A stretch of DNA of 32,000 nt from Methanothermobacter thermautotrophicus str. Delta H (GTDB taxonomy: Archaea; Methanobacteriota; Methanobacteria; Methanobacteriales; Methanothermobacteraceae). Shown one piece after another: positions 288-12,842 of this stretch (the stretch's first letter is position 1; each line of letters begins with the position of its first letter). Both the position numbers and the translations under genes were made by a program. The notes under the pieces are model-generated. The model did no database searches, was not told where the DNA came from, and was given only the letters and a program-made list of their open reading frames with translations. The stretch spans positions 1,110,001 through 1,142,000 of the forward strand of contig NC_000916.1 of NCBI RefSeq assembly GCF_000008645.1, given 5' to 3'.

Positions 288-2048
288 CTATCCCCTGTAG
301 GTTGCATAGAAACCATCGGTGTCGGCATAGACCGTGTGGAACCCAAATTCCTCTGCAGTTTTTATTGTTTTCTTGATATAGTCCCTGCCCCATGCGGTTA
401 TGGCCTCGGCGCACTCCATTGAGTACCAGCGGAACCTTGAATACCCATATACACCGTACATGGTGTTTGCAAGTCTCTTGAGGGCCTCCTGCTGCACATT
501 GAGTATCTTCCTCTCCATGGGATCATCTGATCCCTTCATCTCCTCCTTGATCCTCACCCTCTCTGAGAGTATTTCACCTATAACCGAGGGTACGAATCCC
601 CTCGGACTTTTGCGGAACCTGTAACCGTATTCAGGTGCCACGTAGCATTCAGATTCCTCGTCATCTGTCAGGGTGTCCGGTGAGATGTTCTTTGAGATTA
701 TTATGCTTGGGTAGAGGCTCCTGAAGTCAAACTGGACTATGTTCTCGTGGAGACCCTTCTCTGGTTCCTTGACGTATCCGCCGACCGCCCTGCGACCCCT
801 CCTGCTGGAGAAGTCTGACTGGGATGGCTTGTTTGGTACCAGTTCCCCGTACTGGTATGCCTTGCGGACAAGGAACCATTCCGCCTGCTGACCTGTTGCC
901 ATGCGGGAGATGTCGAATAGTGGCTGGCCCACCAGCCGGGTGAGCTCCAGGTTGAGGGGGAGTATCTTCTCTGCTATCCTGTGGGTTGCAACAACATCAT
1001 CCAGGGAGTACCTGAAGAGTTCATCCCTCAGCTCATCCCGGTCCCAGTACTCCCAGAGCCTGTCACCGGGGAGGTCGATCTTCTCCTCGCCGAAGAGTTC
1101 CTGGTAGACCCTCTCCAGGGTGTACCTGTCAAGGTTCATGTACCTCCTCATGACCGGGTAGAGGTCCACGTGCACCGTTCCCTTTATGGCCGTGGCGTTT
1201 GCAAAGCCCCTCCTCATGGTCCTGATCTTTGAACCATCCCAGCCGAGGTCGAGTTCCGCGCCCAGGATAGCCGCCCTCCTTGTTATGTAGGGGAAGTCAA
1301 AGTTGTCTGAATTGTATCCCACCAGTATGTCCGGTTTCTTATCAATTACGATCTCTGCGAATCTCTCAAGGAGTTCCCTTTCATCCTCAACCACCTCAAC
1401 AAAGTCAAGGTGGTCGCCGGCCGTTGATATGACAGATTCGTAGCCCATGTTACCGGCGACACCAATCATCACTATCTCGTCCTTTTCAGGGTCAGGCATG
1501 CCATGGGGGTTCCTCACCTCGATGTCAAAGCTCAGGATGTCGAGTCCATGTGCCCCTGAACCTGTGCTCTGGACCCTGCCGGTTACCTCCACCGTCCTGA
1601 CATCGGTTGTCACCGATGGTGCTGAGTCCACCTCAACACCCTGGAACTCCAGCTCCTCCATGGGTACTATGGATTTATCTATTAGGTAGCGCCTGTAGAA
1701 TGGGATGTCATGTTCCCTTATATCCCTGACAGATTCCAGGTCCCTTATCCTGTCCCTGATCTTTGGCACGTCCTGGGGGTGTCTGAATTCGATTCTGATG
1801 ACCTCTGTGGGCCTTCCAAGGTCCCTCATCTCTTTGACTTCAAGTTTCTCCAGTTCCAGTTCCTCAAGCTCCCTGAGGCATTCATCGAGGTCTGTGGGGA
1901 TTGCGTATATGTAGGGTCTGAATGAGCGGTCATGGGCTATAATGGGCTCATTTCCGCCGCTTTTATCCTTACCGAAAAGTCTGATAACCGGGACCTCATC
2001 GACGGTCACGTAGTCTATGTCGAGGAGGACCATTCTGTAATCTTCCAT
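288..2048 (-). CDS. polB1: Family-B DNA polymerase, large N-terminal polypeptide of a split PolB (exonuclease plus palm/fingers; thumb absent)
   Basis: The 586-aa ORF carries, in order, Exo I (SFDIEV), Exo II ([10 protein letters not shown]), Exo III (YSLDDV), Pol A ([10 protein letters not shown]), Pol B ([12 protein letters not shown]) and Pol C (YADTDG). It stops 8 codons after motif C. The length and the split match my memory of M. thermautotrophicus PolB1. Confidence 0.93.
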
Positions 2049-2268
2049 GTACCTATTCTGTTATGTGAGATTAATAAAGTGTTCCCGCTGCGTTTATCTC
2101 TGGTTACCGTTCTACAAGTAGCAGAATAAACACTTAAGTAGCACTATTAAGATATAGTGTTTAGGATTTCCTGGGGGTGTTGGACTTATAATAAGCCTTC
2201 TTAGTTGCTGGCATGAAATGAACAGTTTAATCCTGTGATCAGTATTAATACACGGGGAGGTAGAGGGT

Positions 2269-2583
2269 ATGGTTAAGGGAGTTAAACATCCAGTGCTTGC
2301 TGAGTATGCAAAAAGGATCCATGATGGGGAAAAGAACGGTTTTTTGCGGGTCTTACCGGGAAGGTTTTCACCAGGTGACAAATTTGTGATCTATGAGTCC
2401 TATGGGCAATACAGAGGATGGGCGGACATAGTGTCCATTCAGAAGATGCCAAAAGGGAAGATGATCTCAGAATACGGCTTGAGGCTCATGATCACGGAGG
2501 ATGAGTTCATGGATTACTTTGGGGGCAGAAAGGAGATGACCATCATAGAATTTAAAAACTTTGAAAAATTCAGCCCCTGTTAA
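2269..2583 (+). CDS. Hypothetical 104-aa protein, possible ASCH/PUA-like small beta-barrel
   Basis: ATG 2269 is preceded by GGGGAGGTAGAGGGT. The segment AKRIHDGEKNGFLRVLPGRFSPGDKFVIYE resembles the (I..G.K...R....GD.i) signature of ASCH-type domains, judged by eye only. The gene lies in an AT-rich islet. Confidence 0.55.
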   Translation: MVKGVKHPVLAEYAKRIHDGEKNGFLRVLPGRFSPGDKFVIYESYGQYRGWADIVSIQKMPKGKMISEYGLRLMITEDEFMDYFGGRKEMTIIEFKNFEKFSPC

Positions 2584-2587
2584 ACCG

Positions 2588-2657
2588 ATGAGTATGAGAT
2601 GTTAGAAAAAATAGGTGGAAAATACATCTGAAAATGAGTATGAAATGATAGAAGAAA
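2588..2657 (+). repeat. Two copies of an imperfect 24-nt direct repeat (2588-2611 and 2634-2657, 21/24 identical, period 46 nt)
   Basis: ATGAGTATGAGATGTTAGAAAAAA versus ATGAGTATGAAATGATAGAAGAAA, read directly from the sequence in the spacer between the two islet genes. Confidence 0.8.
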
Positions 2658-2674
2658 ACAGAGGATGATTGTTC

Positions 2675-3691
2675 ATGAAGAGCACAGAAAAGTGTCTTAA
2701 AGAATGGAATGCTATCGTAGAGGCCCTAGGACATGGAAAACAGACCATTCTGATCAGAAAATATAAGACAAACCTCAAAGAATTCCTGCTTTACCCCACA
2801 GTCAGCTATACCAATGAAAATGATTACCTGAAAAGTTTCCAGGAAAAACACCACTCATTCGTTGAAAAATATAGCTTCCCCCATAAAGAGGGAGAAAAGA
2901 CAGAGATCAAATACTTTGCCACTGTAGAAAAGATCCTGGAAAGACCGCCTCGAATAATACCCTCAGAGAATTTCTACATCTGGAGAAGGGGCCATGTAAA
3001 ATCATATCTTAACGGGAAAAATGCCTACATATGGGTACTGAGGGTTTACAGACTGAAGAAACCCTACATGGCCGACCTCGCCTATGGACCGGGGGTCTAC
3101 GCTAACCTGAAGGAACGGGTCTCACTGAAGGGCGCTGAACCGGTCCTCACAGATAAGGAATTCTCAGAAACATTAGAAAAACTAACTCCTGAAGAATCTC
3201 TACAATACGGTTATCAGACCCTGAGAGACGAGCTAGCCATGGAGTTGCTTGAAAATATTAGGTCCTGTTCCACAGGATTTTTCAAAAAAATGATAGTGGA
3301 CCTCCTATTGAAGATGGGTTATGGCGGTTCACGAAAGGATGCAGATGAAGCCATAGAGAAGGGTGGAGACGGAGGCATAGAGGGTATTATAAAAGAGGAT
3401 AAATTAGGTCTGGACACCATCTATATCCAGGCAAAGAGAGGGAGCATATCCAGACCTGAAATACAGAAATTTGCAAGTGCACTGGAGGGGCAAGCTAAAA
3501 AGGGAGTCTTTATCACAACATCCAGCTTTTCACGTGCTGCACAGGAATACGCATCCAGCATCGATAACAGAATAGTCCTGATTGATGGAGATGAACTGGC
3601 CCAGCTGATGATCGACCACGACGTCGGTGTATCAAAGGTGACATCCTACGATATCAAAAAAATAGACACAGACTACTTCTCAGAGGAATAA
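2675..3691 (+). CDS. Mrr-type PD-(D/E)xK restriction endonuclease domain fused to an N-terminal DUF1802-like domain
   Basis: The C-terminal ~150 aa read GDGGIEGIIKEDKLGLDTIYIQAKRG ... KGVFITTSSFSRAAQEYA ... IVLIDGDELAQLMIDHDVGV, an Mrr_cat pattern. The N-terminal ~185 aa read LKEWNAIVEALGHGKQTILIRK ... FLLYPT ... YIWVLRVYRLKKP, the pattern I recognise as DUF1802. I place the start at ATG 2675 (GAGGA sits 9 nt upstream) rather than at the track's TTG 2669. Confidence 0.8.
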   Translation: MKSTEKCLKEWNAIVEALGHGKQTILIRKYKTNLKEFLLYPTVSYTNENDYLKSFQEKHHSFVEKYSFPHKEGEKTEIKYFATVEKILERPPRIIPSENFYIWRRGHVKSYLNGKNAYIWVLRVYRLKKPYMADLAYGPGVYANLKERVSLKGAEPVLTDKEFSETLEKLTPEESLQYGYQTLRDELAMELLENIRSCSTGFFKKMIVDLLLKMGYGGSRKDADEAIEKGGDGGIEGIIKEDKLGLDTIYIQAKRGSISRPEIQKFASALEGQAKKGVFITTSSFSRAAQEYASSIDNRIVLIDGDELAQLMIDHDVGVSKVTSYDIKKIDTDYFSEE

Positions 3692-3760
3692 AAATCTGGA
3701 GAATATCAGAAACCAAATGAATATCCCTGTAACTGCAGAACATCCCCCTCTCCAATGTAA

Positions 3761-3767
3761 TTTTTTT
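3761..3767 (+). terminator. Oligo-T tract (T7) downstream of the Mrr-fusion gene
   Basis: GTAATTTTTTTAATC lies ~70 nt after the stop codon. Archaeal terminators are typically oligo-T runs. Confidence 0.4.
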
Positions 3768-3945
3768 AATCAAATAAAAACCACTCTTTCAACCAACTCA
3801 GAGAAACCAAAAAAACCTCGCATCTGTAAGAAAGAAGTGAATAAAAGCCATAAAGGACCCGTTAAGAAGCTGCAACTTACAACAGTATCTCATACAGTTT
3901 TCACTGATCAGAATACGATTTCCGTGTATGTGATCATAGAATTTC

Positions 3946-3954
3946 AAAAAAAAA
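3946..3954 (-). terminator. Oligo-T tract (T9 on the minus strand) just after the permease stop codon
   Basis: The A9 run on the plus strand at 3946-3954 lies ~30 nt downstream of the minus-strand stop at 3983. Confidence 0.45.
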
Positions 3955-3982
3955 GGTCTGTGGCTGGATGAATATACAGCCC

Positions 3983-4987
3983 TTACTGCACTTCCTCTCC
4001 ACCCGACTCCATACGGTAGGCCTCAAGGGCTGCATATGCAAGACCAAGGACCAGTGGCCCCACAATGAAGCCTGCAACACCCCAGACCACAGGTCCTCCT
4101 AGAAATCCCACCAGGAATATCATGGGGTGGATATCCGCGTACTTACCGGATAGCTTGGGTCTCAGGTATATGTCAATGGTGCTAAGGAAGAGACCGAATA
4201 TCAGGACAAGTACTCCCCTCAGGATGTTTCCTGTGACAAAGTCATAGATGGAGAGGGGTGTGTAGGCAGCCCATGGCCCTATCACAGGTATCAGCTGAAA
4301 GAGGCCCGTCATTATACCCAGGAGTATGGCGTAGGGGTATCCGAGAAGATGAAAGCCAACTGCAGCCATTAAACCTATTGCAAGGGCTGTCAGGAAGTGC
4401 CCATAGAATATGCTGAGGAGAACCCTCTCGGTCTCAGAGGCCATTCGCTCCATGAAGGGCCTTGTCTCCTCCGGTATCAGGGTCCTTATGTACCCCACAA
4501 GTCTCTTACCATCCCTTGCAAAGTAGAATGTTGATGAAAGGAATACGAAGAGCTGAAGGGATATCATTGGTACAGACTGGAGGATGGCCACGACATAGTT
4601 GAGTGAACCGCTTAGGATGTCCCTCAGAACCGTTCTGAGGTTTGCAAGTGTGTTCTCCGCCGAGGGCTGTAGATTTCCGGCTCCGGGTACGTGGATGCTC
4701 CCTGCGAGTGAAAGGAGAGATGGGGCTGAATTTATTATGGAATCAACTGTGAACACCAGGATACCCACCAGTGGCATTATAACCACAATCATTGCAAGGA
4801 TGATGGATACCGAGAGGTAGGGTATCCTCCGGTTTATCCTCAGTGCCACGGGCCTTACAATGTAGGCGAATACGGCTCCAAGGAATAGCATGGTCCAGAG
4901 GGGGTATACCACAATTGCCGATAGAAGTAAAAGGGCCATCACAGGGAATGACGCCGATGCCAGTGCACCCCTCAGTCTCTCTATCAT
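3983..4987 (-). CDS. AI-2E family transporter (PerM/UPF0118-type permease)
   Basis: This is a polytopic membrane protein with the family-typical central FYFARDGKRL and a C-terminal Gly/Pro-rich TM bundle. I place the start at ATG 4987 (MIERLRG, preceded by GGTGGTAAC), which avoids overlap with pyrK. Confidence 0.8.
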   Translation of the reverse strand: MIERLRGALASASFPVMALLLLSAIVVYPLWTMLFLGAVFAYIVRPVALRINRRIPYLSVSIILAMIVVIMPLVGILVFTVDSIINSAPSLLSLAGSIHVPGAGNLQPSAENTLANLRTVLRDILSGSLNYVVAILQSVPMISLQLFVFLSSTFYFARDGKRLVGYIRTLIPEETRPFMERMASETERVLLSIFYGHFLTALAIGLMAAVGFHLLGYPYAILLGIMTGLFQLIPVIGPWAAYTPLSIYDFVTGNILRGVLVLIFGLFLSTIDIYLRPKLSGKYADIHPMIFLVGFLGGPVVWGVAGFIVGPLVLGLAYAALEAYRMESGGEEVQ

Positions 4988-5000
4988 GTTACCACCAGAT

Positions 5001-5813
5001 TCACCAGGGCACTCTCCTGCCAGCCGGGTCCCGCCTGTAACGGCCAAACTCCCTTACCCGAGATAGTTCCTGACTCCAGAATACAGGTCCCTCTGCACAT
5101 ACCCTGAAGCCGGTATCATCAAGGCAGCACTGGCCACAGATACCCACAGCGCACTTCATGTATCTCTCAAGGGATAGCTGGGCCGGGACATCCCTCTCAT
5201 CAAGTATCCTCATAACCTGAAACATCATGGGTTCCGGGCCGCAGACAGCAGCCATGTCATGGTTCTCCTCAAGTGTGAGGAGACGTTCATGGGCAAATCC
5301 CTTAAACCCGCAGGAACCATCATCCGTGCACGTACTGATATTCACGCCGGCAGCCTCAAGCCTGTCCAGGAAGAGGAGCTCATCTGCTGTCCTTGCAGCC
5401 ACAAGTGCATCCACACGCATACCCCTTGCGGTGGCCTCATCTGCCAGGGCTGCCAGGGGCGCCATCCCTATCCCGCCCCCCACCAGGAGAATGTCCCTTC
5501 CCATGAGTTCAAATCCCCTGCCATAGGGTCCCCTGATACCGAGAAGGTCGCCCTCACTGAGTCCATGGACCCTGTCTGTGAATTCACCCACCCTTCTTAT
5601 GGATATCCCTATCTCAGATCTCACAGGGTCGATGAGGGAGACAGACATGGGTTTCTCGTCCCTGAAATCCCAGACCATGACGAACTGTCCCGGTCTAACC
5701 TCCCGTCTGAAGTCCCAGCTGAATATGAAGGTCTTCACGCTTTCAGATTCCTCAACTATCCTCTTAATCTCAAGAACCTCTGGAACATTCATGGAATCCA
5801 TCTCCCTAATCAT
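5001..5813 (-). CDS. pyrK: Dihydroorotate dehydrogenase B electron-transfer subunit (FAD/2Fe-2S)
   Basis: The protein has a ferredoxin-reductase-like fold pattern and the C-terminal Cys cluster MKCAVGICGQCC...FRVCAEGPVF. It lies directly downstream of pyrD. The start is ambiguous (ATG 5813, 5801 or 5792); 5813 has GGTGG upstream. Confidence 0.88.
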   Translation of the reverse strand: MIREMDSMNVPEVLEIKRIVEESESVKTFIFSWDFRREVRPGQFVMVWDFRDEKPMSVSLIDPVRSEIGISIRRVGEFTDRVHGLSEGDLLGIRGPYGRGFELMGRDILLVGGGIGMAPLAALADEATARGMRVDALVAARTADELLFLDRLEAAGVNISTCTDDGSCGFKGFAHERLLTLEENHDMAAVCGPEPMMFQVMRILDERDVPAQLSLERYMKCAVGICGQCCLDDTGFRVCAEGPVFWSQELSRVREFGRYRRDPAGRRVPW

Positions 5814-7894: not shown

Positions 7895-8560
7895 GTGAAG
7901 GAAGTTAAGGGTATGGATGGTGTCTTTATCATGAACAACTCCCTCCTCACCATTAACCCCAACCCCGGTGTGAAGGTCTATGGTGAGAGGATCATTGATT
8001 GGGGCGGCCGGGAGTACCGGGTCTGGGATCCCCGGCGGTCCAAGCTTGCTGCGGCCATACTTAACGGTCTGCGGGGTTTCAGTCTGAATTCAGACTCCAG
8101 GGTTCTCTATCTGGGTGCATCGGCCGGGACAACTGCCTCACACATATCTGATATCGTCACGGATGGGAGGGTCTACTGCATCGAATTCTCTCCCAGGATG
8201 ATGCGGGAACTCCTGGGTGTGTGTGAATCCAGAAAAAACATGGCCCCCCTCCTTGAGGACGCCTCAAGACCCCTCAGTTACCTGAGGATGGTTGAGGCCG
8301 CTGATCTCGTGTACTGTGATGTTGCACAGCCTGACCAGACCAGGTTATTCATTGAGAATATGGATTGCTTCCTGAAGAGGGATGGTTATGGACTCATAAT
8401 GATAAAGGCCCGGAGCATAGATGTTACAAGAAGTCCCAGAAAGATCTTCCGGGAGGAAGTGGGGAAGCTTGAGTCTTCTGGTTTCAGAATAATTGATCAG
8501 GTGGGTCTCAATCCCTACGAAAAGGACCATATGGCGGTTCTGGTTAAAAGGGATGTTTAG
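7895..8560 (+). CDS. flpA: Fibrillarin-like rRNA/tRNA 2'-O-methyltransferase
   Basis: Motifs include [18 protein letters not shown] and the SAM-binding [17 protein letters not shown]. The start is uncertain (GTG 7886, GTG 7895 or ATG 7913). The track's TTG 7784 overlaps nop5 and is unlikely. Confidence 0.9.
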
Positions 8561-8572
8561 AAGGGCATATGA

Positions 8573-8578
8573 TTTTTT
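8573..8578 (+). terminator. Oligo-T tract after flpA
   Basis: GATTTTTTG lies 13 nt after the flpA stop, followed by a second run, ATATTTTTA. Confidence 0.45.
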
Positions 8579-8629
8579 GATATATTTTTAGTAAAAAAAG
8601 GTATATATTGGATTAATTACATAATTTCA

Positions 8630-8702
8630 ATCCCAACTGCAGGCCATAATTTCACCTCCGGGTTATTGTTCACAATAACCTGGAGTTGAATTTTAATTTT
8701 TT
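8630..8702 (+). ncRNA. Candidate small RNA: promoter-like BRE/TATA, a 14-bp hairpin and an oligo-T run (the ends are predictions)
   Basis: AAAAAAAG-GTATATATT at 8593-8609 is BRE/TATA-like. The hairpin pairs 8656-8669 with 8672-8685, and its one G.U pair is compatible only with the plus-strand RNA. T4 and T6 runs follow at 8691-8702. There is no coding potential. Confidence 0.3.
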
Positions 8703-8816
8703 GCGTTAATATCATGATGTAAAGGTGAGTTTTAATAATCTTTAAAGCTGAAAGGGAATAGAACAGCCAGAACTGCAGTTAAACTGTTTCTAACCCGTAA
8801 AAATATTTTTCTAATT

Positions 8817-9977
8817 CTATAATAACTGGTCCAGGCTGTCTCCAACCTTCCTTATCACTTCATCAATTATGATGGACGCAAGTTCCTCCTTTTCCATAAG
8901 GGGAAGCTCGGTTACCATGTCTGAGACAATGATGGCCCGGTTCCTGTCTGAGCCAAAACCCTCAACGGACACGTCGTTGGCAACCACCATATCAACACCT
9001 GATTCCCTTATCTGTTTCCTTGCAGATTCCACCAGTGCCTCATTGTCCACATCATACTCTGCCTTGAATCCAACGATGAACGCTTCAGGATTAATCTCCC
9101 TTGCGATCCCTATTACCTTGGGGTTGGGTCTGAGTTCAACTGAAAACTCCTCTGAGGATGATATCTTTCTCTCAGTGTAGACCGGCTTGAAGTCAGCCAC
9201 TGCAGCCGCAGATATGAATACATCATGATCAGCAACGAGTTCCCTGACCCTTTCGGCCATTTCCTCTGCTGTCTCTGCCCGGAAGGATCTTAACTGTGGG
9301 GGTATCTCCACAGATACGGTGCCGGCCACAACCGTGACATCAGCGCCCTCTATGTAGGCCCTCCTGGCTATGGCGAGACCCATCTTCCCTGAACTCCTGT
9401 TTGTAATCCCTCTGACGGGGTCTATGGGTTCATAGGTCCCCCCAAGACTCACAAGGACCCTTTTACCCTGCAGTCTCTGGCTGGAGGTCTGTCTCATTGC
9501 CTCGAGTACTATGGTGTCAATGTCTGGGAACTTGGCCTTTCCCTCATCCATGCGGGGCTCAATAAAGATAACTCCCTCTTCCTTCAGCCTCATGATATTC
9601 TCGGCTGCGGCGGCATACATGGCCTCATGCATTGATGGCACCATGACAATTGGGGTGCCCATGCCTGATGCTGTGAGGAGGAGGGATGATATGGGGTTAT
9701 CAGCCAGCCTGTATGCCAGTTTACCTATGATGTTGGCTGTTGCCGGCGCCACAAGGATCAGGTCAGCGCCTGCGTATTTAACGTGCTCAATTTCCCCTGT
9801 AAGTTCCAGTACAGGTTTGCTTCCGGTTGCAAATTCCATTGCATAGGGGTGTATTATCCTGCAGGCGTCCTCGCTCATGAAGCACTTAACCTCGGCTCCC
9901 TGCCTCCCAAGCTCCCTTGCAAGCTTCACCGCCTCGATGGCTGCAACACTCCCTGTGACGCACAGTATGATCTCCAT
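8817..9977 (-). CDS. coaBC: Bifunctional phosphopantothenoylcysteine decarboxylase / phosphopantothenate-cysteine ligase
   Basis: The N-terminal flavoprotein domain reads ILCVTGSVAAIEAVKLAREL and PATANIIGKLA. The C-terminal CoaB domain reads ITNRSSGKMG and AAAVADF. I prefer the start at ATG 9977 (MEIIL). Confidence 0.92.
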   Translation of the reverse strand: MEIILCVTGSVAAIEAVKLARELGRQGAEVKCFMSEDACRIIHPYAMEFATGSKPVLELTGEIEHVKYAGADLILVAPATANIIGKLAYRLADNPISSLLLTASGMGTPIVMVPSMHEAMYAAAAENIMRLKEEGVIFIEPRMDEGKAKFPDIDTIVLEAMRQTSSQRLQGKRVLVSLGGTYEPIDPVRGITNRSSGKMGLAIARRAYIEGADVTVVAGTVSVEIPPQLRSFRAETAEEMAERVRELVADHDVFISAAAVADFKPVYTERKISSSEEFSVELRPNPKVIGIAREINPEAFIVGFKAEYDVDNEALVESARKQIRESGVDMVVANDVSVEGFGSDRNRAIIVSDMVTELPLMEKEELASIIIDEVIRKVGDSLDQLL

Positions 9978-9987
9978 GGAATCCCCA

Positions 9988-10485
9988 TCATGTATCATCT
10001 ATAACTACAACCGTCTTCTCACCGGTCAGCATTTCTATTATATTATTGAGGGTTTCCAGTTTGCCAGGCACTCTCCTGGCATCCTCCCTCATGACCCTTA
10101 TCTTGAAGCGTTCTTCCCCATCCTTCCCGAATACAATGTTGATCCCTGATATCCTTGCAGGTGCTAGAACATCCTCTGCAACTGATTTGAGGTCTGATTT
10201 CTCTCCAACGACCCGGACCTTCTTTCCTATGGCCCTTGATATTGCCTTCACAATTTTACCACCCTTGCCTATGAGTTTACCGACCTCACCAGCTTCTGTG
10301 ATTATTATAACTATCCCGTCAAGGTCTATGGCCCTTTTAAATCCCAGTTTACCTTCTCCAATCCTGTATAGAACCTTCGCAATCTCCAGTTCAGTTTGAG
10401 TTACCTCCCCTGTTTTAAGTTTATTTTCACAGCCCTGACATAAAATTCCGCTTTTAAGACAGACATCGCATATTGGCAATACCAT
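9988..10485 (-). CDS. NusA-like KH-domain RNA-binding protein with an N-terminal Cys4 zinc ribbon
   Basis: CDVC...CQGC is followed by a KH GXXG motif (GKLIGKGGKIVKAISRAIG) and a second NusA-like KH segment (LAPARISGINIV). I place the start at ATG 10485, preceded by AAGGAGGAAGAAGCA. Confidence 0.7.
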   Translation of the reverse strand: MVLPICDVCLKSGILCQGCENKLKTGEVTQTELEIAKVLYRIGEGKLGFKRAIDLDGIVIIITEAGEVGKLIGKGGKIVKAISRAIGKKVRVVGEKSDLKSVAEDVLAPARISGINIVFGKDGEERFKIRVMREDARRVPGKLETLNNIIEMLTGEKTVVVIDDT

Positions 10486-10719
10486 TGCTTCTTCCTCCTT
10501 TTCTTTAGTGGTTACCGTGATTATCGTGAACAAGGTCACACTGTATAATCCAGGTTTAAAAAGCCATTAGCAGCCTTTAAACCTCTGGAGATAAAATAAA
10601 AAGAGCCCGTCTATTTATCACTGCAGCGACCCTATGGTTAATTAATTACTTTGATAAATATAAATTTATAGTTTTGGATGGCAAAAAAATAAGAAGGGAT
10701 TTGGGGGCTGGTGTGAAAA

Positions 10720-11220
10720 TCAGAGGAACCTCAGGGTCCTGACAATGAGGTCGAAGTTCCGGCTCTCGGCATCGAATTTATCTGCCGGAGCTGTGCAAAG
10801 TATCACATAGACCCTTCCATTGTTCTCTATCCATATTGCCCTCTGCTTTTTCTGGATTCCGCTGTCTGTGATGATGTAAAGGTTTTCGATTGCCTGGTAA
10901 CTGCCTATGGTCGTGTTGGTCTCCGAGACTCTCCTGTAACTTGAATTTGTGAAAAGGGCTTCATAATTCGCCCTGTACATGTCGTAAAGGTTCCCCTTGA
11001 GGTCCTTTGACTGGATAACCACAGAGACCTGGGCAAGACCTGAGGAATCAACGGATGATGGGTCTCCAACCGCTGCAACTGTGTCATTGGCCAGTGAATT
11101 CGCTGTTACCCAGTCTGATGGATACTCAAATGAAACGTTATTCCCTGTAAACGTTTTTGTCTGGTTTTCAGAGCCTGCATCCTCTGATGTGCAGCCGGAT
11201 ACAGACACAACCAGGACCAT
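10720..11220 (-). CDS. Secreted PsbP/DcrB-like protein, probable lipoprotein; the true start is probably ATG 11246 in another frame (frameshift)
   Basis: MVLVVSVSGC ends in a lipobox-like SGC, and the mature part has a PsbP-like pattern (FEYPSDW ... VYVILCTAP). A GAGGT-N7-ATG (11246) encoding MKRYMLILL lies just upstream in a different frame. Confidence 0.65.
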   Translation of the reverse strand: MVLVVSVSGCTSEDAGSENQTKTFTGNNVSFEYPSDWVTANSLANDTVAAVGDPSSVDSSGLAQVSVVIQSKDLKGNLYDMYRANYEALFTNSSYRRVSETNTTIGSYQAIENLYIITDSGIQKKQRAIWIENNGRVYVILCTAPADKFDAESRNFDLIVRTLRFL

Positions 11221-11259: not shown

Positions 11260-11874
11260 CTAGGGTGATGATGGCGGATTCTGAGTGCCGCCAGTGCCTC
11301 CTGTCCCCTGGTTATCCTGTGGCGTTGATGGTGTGGATGGCGTTGATGGCGTCTGTGGTGTGGATGGTGTCTGTGGTGTTGTGTTTCCCTGACTGAATGT
11401 TTTATTGGATGTTAAAGTTACATTCTTCGCTGTGTCGTTGGAGGATGGGAAGGCGCTCTCATTCACCGTGACTGTCCCCGTGGCCGGAGTTTCTGGCTGA
11501 ATATTCATGAAGTAAAGACCAAAGCCCGTGCCGAAGAGGAATGCCACCACAAGGACTATGGCCCCTATCAGGGACAGGTTCGGCCTCTTCCTCCTTCTGG
11601 TCTCATCTGTCCTGACATATTTTTCAATGAGCTCCTCTTTCTCTTTCCTGTCCTTCTTTATTCTTGACTCCTCCACCCAGTGGTCAAGGGGCTTTTCAGG
11701 AGTCTCCTGTCCCTGAAGCCTTCTTATGTTCTCCACTGCCTCCAGGGTTTCAAGTTCACGTGTGTACTGTTCCCTGAGTGATCTGTACTCCTTCTCTGAA
11801 ATGTTTCCCTCTTCACGTTCCCTTTCAAGTTTCTTGAGCTGTCTCAGGAGCATTTTCTTATCCTGGCTAATCAT
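11260..11874 (-). CDS. Single-pass membrane protein with a cytoplasmic coiled-coil/SHOCT-like segment and an extracellular Thr/Pro/Ser-rich tail
   Basis: LKKLEREREEGNISEKEYRSLREQY is SHOCT-like. The TM helix is LSLIGAIVLVVAFLFGTGFGLYF. The tail reads TTPQTPSTPQTPSTPSTPSTPQ...GTGGTGGT. I prefer the start at ATG 11874 (GGAGATGGTG upstream); the track start GTG 11958 is unlikely. Confidence 0.6.
   Translation of the reverse strand: MISQDKKMLLRQLKKLEREREEGNISEKEYRSLREQYTRELETLEAVENIRRLQGQETPEKPLDHWVEESRIKKDRKEKEELIEKYVRTDETRRRKRPNLSLIGAIVLVVAFLFGTGFGLYFMNIQPETPATGTVTVNESAFPSSNDTAKNVTLTSNKTFSQGNTTPQTPSTPQTPSTPSTPSTPQDNQGTGGTGGTQNPPSSP
11317..11382 (-). repeat. In-frame tandem 9/12-nt repeats encoding (T-P-S/Q)n
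   Basis: On the plus strand, GGCGTTGATGG / TGTGGATGG / CGTCTGTGG units reiterate, translating to TTPQTPSTPQTPSTPSTPSTPQ. Confidence 0.8.
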
Positions 11875-12023
11875 CACCATCTCCTGAATTAAATCCGTGA
11901 TAATAAACGGATCTATATTGTACTCACCAGTATATAAATTTACAGAGTGCCGCGCCACACCCTTAAAATGACCCGCCCATTGCTCTTACTCACGTTTTAA
12001 TCTCCTTTGAGGATCAGAATTAA

Positions 12024-12842
12024 TCAATAATCAGTCATTTCAGGGTATGAACCCAGAATCTTGAAGAATGGGGTCCTATCAGATATACTCCTGAGTATGT
12101 CCATTACATGCGGGTCCTTCCGGTGCCCCTGGAAATCCACAAAGAATATGTACTTGCCAAGACCCCTCTTTGATGGGCGGGACTCTATCTTGGTGAGGTT
12201 GACTCCCGCATCTGCGAAGAAGCCCAGGATCTCATGGAGTCCCCCTGGTTTATCCTCTGATAGTGAGAAGACTATGGAGGTCTTATCCCTTCCTGTTGGT
12301 TCATGGTCACCCTCTGAAAGGACTATGAACCTTGTGAAGTTGGGGTCAAAGTCCTGGATGTTCTCTGCAATCACCTCGAGGCCATATATATCCGCAGCCC
12401 TTCTCGTTCCTATGGCCGCGCACTCCCTCCTCCCCATTATGGTCCTTGCAGCTGCAGCCGTGCTTGGTGTTGAGTGTGTTGAGACCCCAAGTTTCTCCAG
12501 AAATCCTCTGCACTGTGCAAGGGACTGGGGATGGGAGTAGACCTCCCGGATCTCATTCAGGGAGACACCCCTGTTAACGAGGAGGTTGTGCCTTACACGG
12601 AGTATTATCTCCCCCTCTATGCAGAGATCATATTCCCAGGCAAGGAGGTCAAGGGTGACCCCCACCGGGCCCTCTATTGAGTTTTCGATAGGTACAACAC
12701 CCCTTGAGGCCACTCCGGTTGCCACTGCGCCCAGCACCTCGAGTATTGAGTCGAAGGGGATGAGTTCCTCACCGACCCTCCGGGCTGCCTCCTCTGTGAA
12801 TGTCCCCTCAGGGCCCAGATAGGCTATGGGAAGAGATCTCAG
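12024..12842 (-). CDS. pheA: Prephenate dehydratase with a C-terminal ACT domain; non-canonical start (CTG 12842 or ATA 12827)
   Basis: TRF (NFTRFIVL) and ESRP (LTKIESRPSK) motifs are present. The conserved N-terminus IAYLGPEGTFTEEAA is encoded at 12825-12781, upstream of the first ATG/GTG/TTG (GTG 12737). The frame opens only at 12854. Confidence 0.85.
   Translation of the reverse strand: MRSLPIAYLGPEGTFTEEAARRVGEELIPFDSILEVLGAVATGVASRGVVPIENSIEGPVGVTLDLLAWEYDLCIEGEIILRVRHNLLVNRGVSLNEIREVYSHPQSLAQCRGFLEKLGVSTHSTPSTAAAARTIMGRRECAAIGTRRAADIYGLEVIAENIQDFDPNFTRFIVLSEGDHEPTGRDKTSIVFSLSEDKPGGLHEILGFFADAGVNLTKIESRPSKRGLGKYIFFVDFQGHRKDPHVMDILRSISDRTPFFKILGSYPEMTDY

Follow-up and report, generated by a model that had tools for sequence, protein, structure and literature searches.

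In the EcoKMrr family of type IV restriction enzymes, an Mrr_N winged helix precedes the PD-QxK nuclease domain Mrr_cat, and the N-terminal domain of Mrr is a putative methylated-DNA binding domain (PMC5435990). Another group of enzymes couples an N-terminal PUA-type barrel to a C-terminal nuclease; it includes the MspJI/SRA-type enzymes, the EVE-HNH enzyme VcaM4I, YTH-McrB and ASCH-REase (PMC6765204, PMC12191111, PMC10853773). Domains of the PUA superfamily (SRA, EVE and YTH, and ASCH by prediction) flip the modified base and guide the fused type IV nucleases (PMC6765204, PMC12191111); as a general kind, the PUA-like sensor coupled to a PD-(D/E)xK nuclease is already well known. Stand-alone EVE and ASCH proteins also lie beside archaeal type I restriction-modification systems (Bell, Wolf and Koonin 2020, PMC7641849), and computational work has recorded fusions of ASCH to REase as well as to HsdS (PMC10853773, PMC7641849). 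Here we analysed a 32,000-nucleotide stretch of the Methanothermobacter thermautotrophicus str. Delta H genome (NC_000916.1, positions 1,110,001 to 1,142,000 of the forward strand; hereafter the window), in which a two-gene islet at 2049–3982, between polB1 and a permease gene, encodes a fusion of a DUF1802 domain to Mrr_cat (gene 2). We favour, at slightly better than an even chance, the reading that this fusion is a type IV-like nuclease which senses modification through a swapped sensor, both its cleavage and its sensing being predicted, because the Mrr sensor is replaced at the domain boundary by the ASCH fold of a restriction-operon family.

Like the EcoKMrr family, the fusion possesses the linker and Mrr_cat, with the QAK and GVFITTS motifs; different from that family, it has DUF1802 in place of Mrr_N, Glu in place of the catalytic Asp, and three residues fewer after QAK. 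Compared to the PUA sensor-nuclease enzymes, the order of N-terminal barrel and C-terminal nuclease is the same, but the sensor is DUF1802, the nuclease is Mrr_cat without the McrB NTPase, and the fusion, a young one known from a single lineage, does not form an established family. Compared to the stand-alone EVE and ASCH proteins of archaeal type I systems, DUF1802 and DUF365 (the family of gene 1) are likewise small and PUA-like, in the same orientation as the operon and at its head or tail. The paper describing those systems (PMC7641849) does not name DUF1802 or DUF365; DUF1802 is also found in type IIG and bacteriophage exclusion (BREX) operons (BrxC-DUF1802-PglZ), and here it is covalently fused to a nuclease. 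The fold is common to ZmASCH, a single-stranded RNA (ssRNA) RNase, to Escherichia coli YqfB, an N4-acylcytosine amidohydrolase, and to BapA, a deglucosylase of glucosyl-5-hydroxymethylcytosine (glucosyl-5hmC). DUF1802 has no significant sequence similarity to these three proteins, and their catalytic residues are not mappable on it. BapA is an accessory that widens the reach of its DNA-targeting partner Brig3 (PMC13160076); DUF1802 plays a genomic role of the same kind.

The original prediction, made from the letters of the sequence, regarded the architecture of gene 2 as uncharacterised. This holds for experimental work, none of which was found; the gene itself is catalogued (O27278), and ASCH-REase fusions had been noted computationally (PMC10853773, PMC6765204). 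The literature search returned nothing on MTH1209, MTH1210 or O27278, and DUF1802 was named in one irrelevant paper, with nothing on its fold, function or any experiment. What appears to be new is the model-based assignment of DUF1802 to the ASCH fold, the association of DUF1802 with restriction-modification and BREX operons across Methanobacteriales, and the proposed recent deletion origin of the fusion together with its unusual catalytic Glu.

Domains, fold and conservation of the fusion protein

The islet and its neighbours are listed below (window coordinates, strand in brackets).

288–2048 (−): polB1, left neighbour of the islet
2049–2268 (+): upstream spacer, promoter region and ribosome-binding site (RBS) of the DUF365-DUF1802 module
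2269–2583 (+): gene 1, truncated DUF365 open reading frame (ORF), 104 aa
2584–2674 (+): decayed, spacer-like 3′ end of DUF365, from alignment to the M. wolfeii DUF365 3′ end
2675–3691 (ATG) or 2669–3691 (TTG) (+): gene 2, DUF1802::Mrr_cat fusion, 338 or 340 aa
2675–3184 (+): DUF1802 domain, residues 1–170, from Pfam PF08819 and the fold model
3180–3190 (+): fusion joint GAAAAACTAACTCC, from three-way DNA and protein comparison
3185–3691 (+): Mrr linker and PD-QxK nuclease (Mrr_cat), residues 171–338, from Pfam PF04471 and PADLOC
3692–3982 (no strand): 3′ spacer where the fusion gene and the permease gene converge, AT-rich with A/T runs
3983–5047 (−): AI-2E permease gene, right neighbour of the islet

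Gene 2 matches DUF1802 (PF08819) over residues 9–168 with an E of 5e-26 (92 bits against a cut-off of 25; profile positions 1–171 of 174) and Mrr_cat (PF04471) over residues 197–314 with an E of 1.2e-30 (profile positions 1–115 of 115). The PADLOC profile mREase_IV covers residues 165–339 (1.6e-57). These matches agree with the original prediction, in which a DUF1802-type N-terminus was joined to an Mrr catalytic domain; the peptide motifs quoted there are all present at the places given. The Mrr_N winged helix (PF14338), which had been thought absent, has no Pfam match in gene 2, and in the alignment DUF1802 occupies its place; lacking Mrr_N, the protein is therefore not a canonical Mrr. Gene 2 has a secondary Pfam match, to NA-iREase1 (PF22722, E 1.8e-12), which canonical Mrr proteins match too. 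NCBIfam gave no informative family. The start codon of gene 2 is likely ATG 2675 rather than TTG 2669, because the same start is used in free-standing DUF1802 genes and in most database entries.

A sequence search of the PDB with the fusion protein gave zero matches, and a PDB profile search with DUF1802 gave chance matches only, with no solved structure related by sequence. The AlphaFold model of the DUF1802 domain, built from 120 homologues, has a predicted local distance difference test score (pLDDT) of 91.9 and a predicted template modelling score (pTM) of 0.88. Its best PDB match in Foldseek is ZmASCH (E 3.4e-5, prob 1.0); the other matches include TTHA0113, EOLA1, the ASCH domain of TRIP4 bound to double-stranded DNA (dsDNA) and YqfB (N4-acetylcytidine, ac4C, amidohydrolase), and VcaM4I is matched weakly. 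Against ASCH domains, the E values range from 3e-5 to 1e-2 and the template modelling (TM) scores from 0.4 to 0.6. The Pfam ASCH profile has no sequence match in the DUF1802 domain; the family carries an ASCH-like G-K-Q-T-I-L-I-R motif and the invariant polar residues E16, Q23 and H107; W11, Y30, Y45, W103 and W120 are invariant too and, with H107, might line a base-flipping pocket. Judged from the model, which is a β-barrel with a helix following strand 1 and superimposes on solved ASCH domains, DUF1802 is a member of the ASCH branch of the PUA-like superfamily, which narrows the PUA-like fold proposed originally.

The DUF1802 half is 81% identical to free-standing 173-aa DUF1802 proteins, the last 3 residues being gone. 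Across the C-terminal 168 residues, which hold the linker and Mrr_cat, identity to the canonical Mrr that sister Methanothermobacter strains carry at this locus is also 81%. In the nuclease half, IYIQAKR is present at the 21-residue spacing from the start of GIDG that is usual in the family, and GVFITTS is present as well.

The fusion protein of the window is identical to WP_048060990.1; the Delta H database entry is AAB85699.1 / UniProt O27278, ‘mrr restriction system related protein’. In an exhaustive HMMER search of 1.84 billion representatives, the best 150 matches are all single-domain and none of them covers both halves. The fusion is confined to M. thermautotrophicus-type strains, where the islet is present with the fusion intact in more than 10 genomes, metagenome-assembled genomes and contigs. 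Among five near-identical alleles, 8 of the polymorphic codons are synonymous and 6 non-synonymous (P = 0.004 versus neutrality). One allele is ∼6% diverged and has the same joint (L084, 992–2014); between it and the window, the synonymous divergence (dS) is 0.171 and the ratio of non-synonymous to synonymous change (omega) is 0.19 overall, the DUF1802 half having 0.23 and the Mrr_cat half 0.14. Over the same divergence, gene 1 gathers frameshifts. The low omega across alleles of the same joint therefore showed, at the level of sequence comparison, that purifying selection has kept both halves of the fusion since it was formed.

In the L084 allele the nuclease motif is EAK instead of QAK, and GDGSIEG stands for GDGGIEG; active-site residues are therefore changing within the fusion lineage. 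Annotation of the fusion gene is inconsistent between records: WBF07257.1 and MBC7111842.1 give a 207-aa product only, which begins at the internal Met of ...MADLAYGPG... and therefore misses the DUF1802 domain.

Allelic history of the locus and decay of gene 1

A presence/absence comparison, proposed along with the original prediction, revealed that the locus varies among Methanothermobacter strains. In sister genomes the polB1-permease gap holds one canonical mrr (Mrr_N and Mrr_cat, 307 aa); we used two such mrr-only alleles, P0002 (named for strain CaT2) and L007 (from CP064337.1). The mrr-only allele keeps the promoter region of gene 1, its ATG and ∼29 codons, with a 1-nt deletion that shifts the frame. 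Between fusion and mrr-only alleles the flanks are 97–100% identical and window 2357–3175 is unalignable; identity is 76–89% over 3176–3543, and the last ∼110 nt of mrr are identical.

Free-standing DUF1802 proteins are ∼170 aa in length and end in ...LEKLNEP before the stop codon; all 120 listed of the 906 matches are single-domain. The fusion reads ...LEKL/TPEESLQYGYQ... (slash, joint), TPEES... being the stretch that links Mrr_N to Mrr_cat in canonical Mrr. At the joint, CTCA is common to the DUF1802 3′ end (GAAAAACTCAATGAACCTTAG, M. wolfeii) and the mrr of the sister allele (GAAGATCTCACTCCCGAAGAA), and is therefore taken as the signature of a microhomology-mediated deletion. Such a deletion would have taken away the DUF1802 stop with the 3 codons before it, ∼133 codons of Mrr_N and whatever spacer lay between; nearly the whole DUF1802 gene would thereby have been joined to the inter-domain linker of Mrr, with loss of Mrr’s own winged-helix sensor.

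From these alignments, the simplest reading would be an ancestral DUF365-DUF1802-mrr locus, the pieces of which were lost differently in two lineages, with allelic exchange of the nuclease part in addition. The simple import of a two-gene cassette, as originally proposed, does not fit: in sister strains the mrr part sits at this very locus, and the fusion resembles a product of deletion in place. Exchange of the nuclease part among alleles has direct evidence in a recombinant (L086, 659–1696), since this fusion allele is 99% identical to the window up to 3444 and then has a different mrr 3′ end, ∼70% identical to L007, in which W is restored after KR, giving a 345-aa protein.

Several observations count against so simple a history. 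The dS between the two mrr alleles is 0.84, compared to 0.05 in the flanking genes; imported sequence and recombination therefore belong to the history, not deletion alone. Mrr is near DUF1802 in 3 of 51 loci, 2–5 kb off and never adjacent. An unfused DUF365-DUF1802-mrr allele was not found in the 51 genome loci or with a metagenome probe (the conserved 5′ end of gene 1), which recovered fusion-type, mrr-only and M. wolfeii-type alleles only; the three-gene ancestor is therefore one that we infer.

The polB1-permease gap in Methanothermobacter is a small variable defence locus. As we read it, the locus would be a case of sensor swapping, in which a microhomology deletion fused adjacent genes, the product stayed under purifying selection and the redundant neighbour decayed, while the nuclease end is still recombining with other alleles. 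In a bioreactor-metagenome mrr-only allele (L085, 262–1185, minus strand), mrr is split into three ORFs, either as a pseudogene or through an assembly error. A 419-aa protein (P0410) was considered as an intermediate and ruled out: its length is due to a C-terminal frameshift, after which the reading frame runs on into the spacer.

Gene 1, judged from its alignments, is a frameshift-truncated DUF365 relic, dead or dying, and not the free-standing reader-like partner that had been proposed. Its product is 72% identical to the 135-aa DUF365 protein of M. wolfeii (P0122), scores 16.1 bits against DUF365 (PF04033; cut-off 25.9; profile positions 2–55 of 96), and falls below the Pfam threshold for ASCH as well as for DUF365. 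When window 2201–3185 is aligned with the intact M. wolfeii DUF365-DUF1802 pair (∼82% DNA identity), a 2-nt deletion near 2573 leads to the stop codon at 2581–2583. Because of this frameshift, gene 1 loses the C-terminal ∼31 residues, and its product is without the last β-strand and the terminal helix of the DUF365 fold. The 91-bp ‘spacer’ at 2584–2674 is the remainder of the DUF365 gene, with further indels; out of frame it still encodes ...ENEYEMIEENRG before a stop, compared to the family C-terminus EDEYKMVEENRG before the stop. Inside this decayed end lies a 24-nt direct repeat, 88% identical (2588–2611 / 2634–2657), which duplicates the segment coding the old C-terminal DEYEM motif. Omega for gene 1 is 0.67 and its amino-acid change is 5–10 times faster than that of the sister sequence; the L084 allele has two extra frameshifts in gene 1, and in another contig (P0414) it ends at 64 aa.

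Gene 1 had also been described as a small barrel comparable to DUF1802. In fold this stands: the DUF365 family profile matches the solved structure 2kku (E 5e-22), a model of a full-length DUF365 member superimposes on ZmASCH with a TM of 0.87 and a root-mean-square deviation of 1.9 Å, and full-length members are, on this model, ASCH domains. The likeness does not extend to sequence, for which hhalign of DUF1802 versus DUF365 gave a prob of 1% and no detectable relationship; with the fold alone in common, the idea that the two families are paralogues was dropped. The PADLOC profile PDC-M11B matched P0122 at 1.6e-8 and gene 1 weakly at 7.6e-5. Only the DUF365 side of the candidate system PDC-M11 was thus matched, DUF1802 having no match to PDC-M11A or PDC-M11B.

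Genomic context of DUF1802 and function of the fusion

In a scan of one genome per species, we found 56 DUF1802 loci, in Methanobacteriales only and often several per genome. The nearest upstream gene is often 0–35 bp off in the same orientation. Among 40 upstream neighbours scanned there were 8 HsdR, 6 HsdS, several methyltransferases, 2 BrxC and 2 integrases; downstream we observed N6/Eco57I-type methyltransferases, PglZ, GmrSD, EVE proteins and a C5 methyltransferase. DUF1802 was not found in the viral contig collection, and a viral or anti-restriction origin is therefore without support. Restriction and BREX neighbours, together with the absence from viral contigs, therefore mark DUF1802 as a promiscuous accessory gene of restriction/BREX operons. 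In ∼7 of 51 loci DUF1802 is preceded by a DUF365 gene at a distance of at most ∼300 bp, in six of them within 15 bp. In M. wolfeii the next genes after the DUF365-DUF1802 pair are hsdMSR, and in locus L024 the pair is followed directly by an MmeI-like enzyme.

A wider role can be put forward tentatively and with more doubt than confidence: DUF1802, often with DUF365, may be a widespread, previously unrecognised ASCH-fold accessory module of archaeal type I/IIG/BREX systems that senses or strips base modifications and so extends these systems to modified invader DNA. Were that the case, the fusion would be a natural ‘Rosetta stone’ in which DUF1802 directly guides a nuclease, and it would make an ASCH-directed restriction enzyme, from a thermophile, accessible to experiment for the first time. 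The fold of DUF1802 and its operon context point to an unexplored layer of archaeal defence.

Some individual loci deserve mention. In two Methanobrevibacter loci (L054 and L056, 5983–6498 in each), DUF1802 lies inside BREX operons of the order BrxC-DUF1802-PglZ: an ORF of ∼1190 aa, probably BrxC, ends 9–10 bp before it and one of ∼834 aa, probably PglZ, begins 0 bp after it, these labels being drawn from pooled counts and not from per-locus tables. At L024 1267–6169, the DUF365-DUF1802 pair is followed by a 1150-aa MmeI-like methyltransferase/endonuclease and then by a PLD-nuclease/SNF2-helicase of more than 1000 aa, a combination reminiscent of the archaeal SWI2/SNF2-nuclease systems that have been reported together with stand-alone EVE proteins. 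A conserved 98-aa ORF (3442–3738 in L002–L005) lies between hsdM and hsdS of a Methanobacterium type I operon that ends in DUF1802, with an integrase and a transposase nearby.

With regard to the fusion itself, the architecture would fit type IV: a nuclease and a putative sensing domain, with no methyltransferase gene in 2049–3982 by ORF list or Pfam, as originally stated. In the reading that we favour, the ASCH-type domain would now supply the target recognition of the nuclease, and DUF1802 would flip the modified base into its pocket like other PUA-superfamily sensors. Such a modification-dependent, type IV-like endonuclease would need no methyltransferase. The reader role of ASCH domains has long been predicted and not demonstrated (PMC11037411), and a compact 338-aa thermophilic protein in which an ASCH-fold domain is joined to a well-understood nuclease domain is a convenient test case. 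The practical importance is modest: M. thermautotrophicus serves as a model for genetics and biotechnology, and restriction barriers affect its transformability.

Several findings speak against this type IV-like reading. The catalytic Asp equivalent to D203 of E. coli Mrr is Glu (GIEG, not GIDG) in every fusion allele examined, the very residue about which the original prediction had raised a caveat; the GIDG-loop Asp is present in 226 of 226 relatives, and Glu in none of them. From QAK to GVFIT the spacing is 30 residues, compared to 33–35 in relatives. The D203A mutant of E. coli Mrr is inactive, and D203 also affects tetramer stability (PMC5435990). The DUF1802 domain of the window deviates at 8 of 77 family-conserved positions (family mean 2.7), and all three parts show accelerated amino-acid change in the lineage of the window. 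No experiment shows any ASCH domain reading modified DNA (PMC11037411), and the characterised ASCH proteins are enzymes, namely the amidohydrolase YqfB, the RNase ZmASCH and the DNA deglucosylase BapA (PMC13160076, PMC11037411).

The substitution of a catalytic residue that is invariant in 226 relatives, the three-residue shortening next to QAK and the dual role of D203 would fit a protein that is kept but nuclease-dead, with the Mrr_cat half as an oligomerisation or DNA-binding scaffold and the whole as a sensor, a regulator or the dominant partner of another system, in the manner of the ‘inactive restriction endonuclease’ domains of NACHT-associated proteins. We consider this unlikely. Purifying selection, which tells that the protein is useful without saying for what, is compatible with it, and so is the secondary NA-iREase1 match, but canonical Mrr proteins give this match too and it is not specific to the fusion. 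Glu retains a carboxylate, the K of QAK and the other motifs are intact, and Mrr_cat is the better-conserved half; the change of QAK to EAK in L084, the classical ExK form, would be hard to explain if the site were irrelevant. In the reading that we favour, the replacement of Asp by Glu probably weakens or modifies cleavage but leaves function in place. A decidedly unlikely alternative takes the ASCH-type domain as an enzyme: DUF1802, together with any intact DUF365, would remove or change a base modification that protects invader DNA, and so open this DNA to a restriction/BREX system or to the fused nuclease. The hydrolases of the ASCH fold favour it, among them BapA, which deglucosylates phage glucosyl-5hmC DNA and widens the immunity of its partner Brig3 (PMC13160076), as do the G-K-Q-T-I-L-I-R motif, the invariant E16, Q23 and H107, and the position of DUF1802 within operons of classical type I, type IIG and BREX systems, which modification blocks and for which an unmasking activity would make sense. 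Against it, catalytic residues are not mappable in DUF1802 and the fold similarity is moderate (TM 0.5–0.6); moreover, replacement of the DNA-binding domain of Mrr calls for DNA targeting, which a reader would give most simply. Thr24 of E. coli YqfB would fall on a Leu in DUF1802.

It is very improbable that the whole islet is decaying junk, an accidental in-frame chimera without function and bound for loss like gene 1. In its favour, gene 1 is a clear relic, change is accelerated in all parts, the catalytic residue is substituted and indels are present; the sister allele has lost DUF365 and DUF1802, mrr itself is fragmented in L085, and P0410 has its C-terminal frameshift. This view has to contend with an omega of ∼0.2 on both halves over a dS of 0.17, during which gene 1 gained frameshifts, with the significant synonymous excess (P = 0.004), and with an ORF that is intact in nearly all alleles seen, its RBS and start codon kept. 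Least of all do we credit a laterally acquired two-gene cassette in which gene 1 works with the fusion as a free-standing reader, a role already largely refuted. Its AT-rich composition, the descent of both proteins from ASCH-fold families and the real, conserved DUF365-DUF1802 pair elsewhere speak for it. However, gene 1 is without its last strand and helix, evolves at an omega of 0.67 and is more broken in other alleles; the mrr portion and the 5′ end of gene 1 are common to the sister allele at the same locus, and with DUF365 near only ∼7 of 51 DUF1802 loci, DUF1802 does not need it.

Composition and boundaries of the islet

The GC content of 2049–3982 is 0.412, compared to 0.503 for the whole window. 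In a 1934-bp sliding scan over the 32 kb, the islet lies approximately at the minimum (lowest value 0.411, at 2026), and the next lowest non-overlapping stretch has 0.45; the islet is thus AT-richer than its flanks as claimed, and the G+C counts made by hand (26/60, 22/60 and 39/60) are exact. The islet genes have a GC of 0.43–0.44 and a third-position GC (GC3) of 0.46–0.54, compared to 0.52–0.55 and 0.57–0.66, respectively, in polB1, the permease gene, pyrK and pyrD. Both edges had been described as AT-rich with oligo-T/A tracts. Both are indeed AT-rich (GC 0.386 in the left spacer and 0.361 in the right), but A/T runs of at least 5 nt occur in the right spacer only (T7, A5, A7 and A9) and none in the left.

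The upstream spacer carries the RBS GGAGGT 8 nt before the ATG. It is common to the mrr-only allele (aligning to L007 5634–5858) and partly to the M. wolfeii pair (from ∼2201), the first mismatches between the window and the sister allele being at 2088. The right spacer is found in both allele types and presumably holds terminators; the 84-aa ORF at 3717–3971 within it is probably spurious, no credible Pfam match having been found. Rfam gave zero matches in the right spacer, and the Rfam and repeat scans of 1800–4200 gave no non-coding RNA, att-like direct repeats or tRNA-type integration signature. A bacterial promoter/terminator scan is uninformative for archaeal DNA.

A perfect 12-nt inverted repeat, CTATTCTGTTAT / ATAACAGAATAG, is located at 2053–2064 and 3564–3575, its arms standing 21–24 nt beyond the edges of the allele-divergent block 2088–3543. 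Fusion-type and mrr-only alleles retain both arms; the recombinant L086 lacks the right one, and M. wolfeii has neither. In the region, 2 such 12-mer inverted pairs were observed compared to 0.31 expected (shuffle p ∼0.09), and the repeat may therefore be due to chance. Other short AT-rich dips (GC 0.37–0.44) were observed at window 8400–9000, 10200–10800 and 11600–12200; they may be intergenic regions or further foreign genes.

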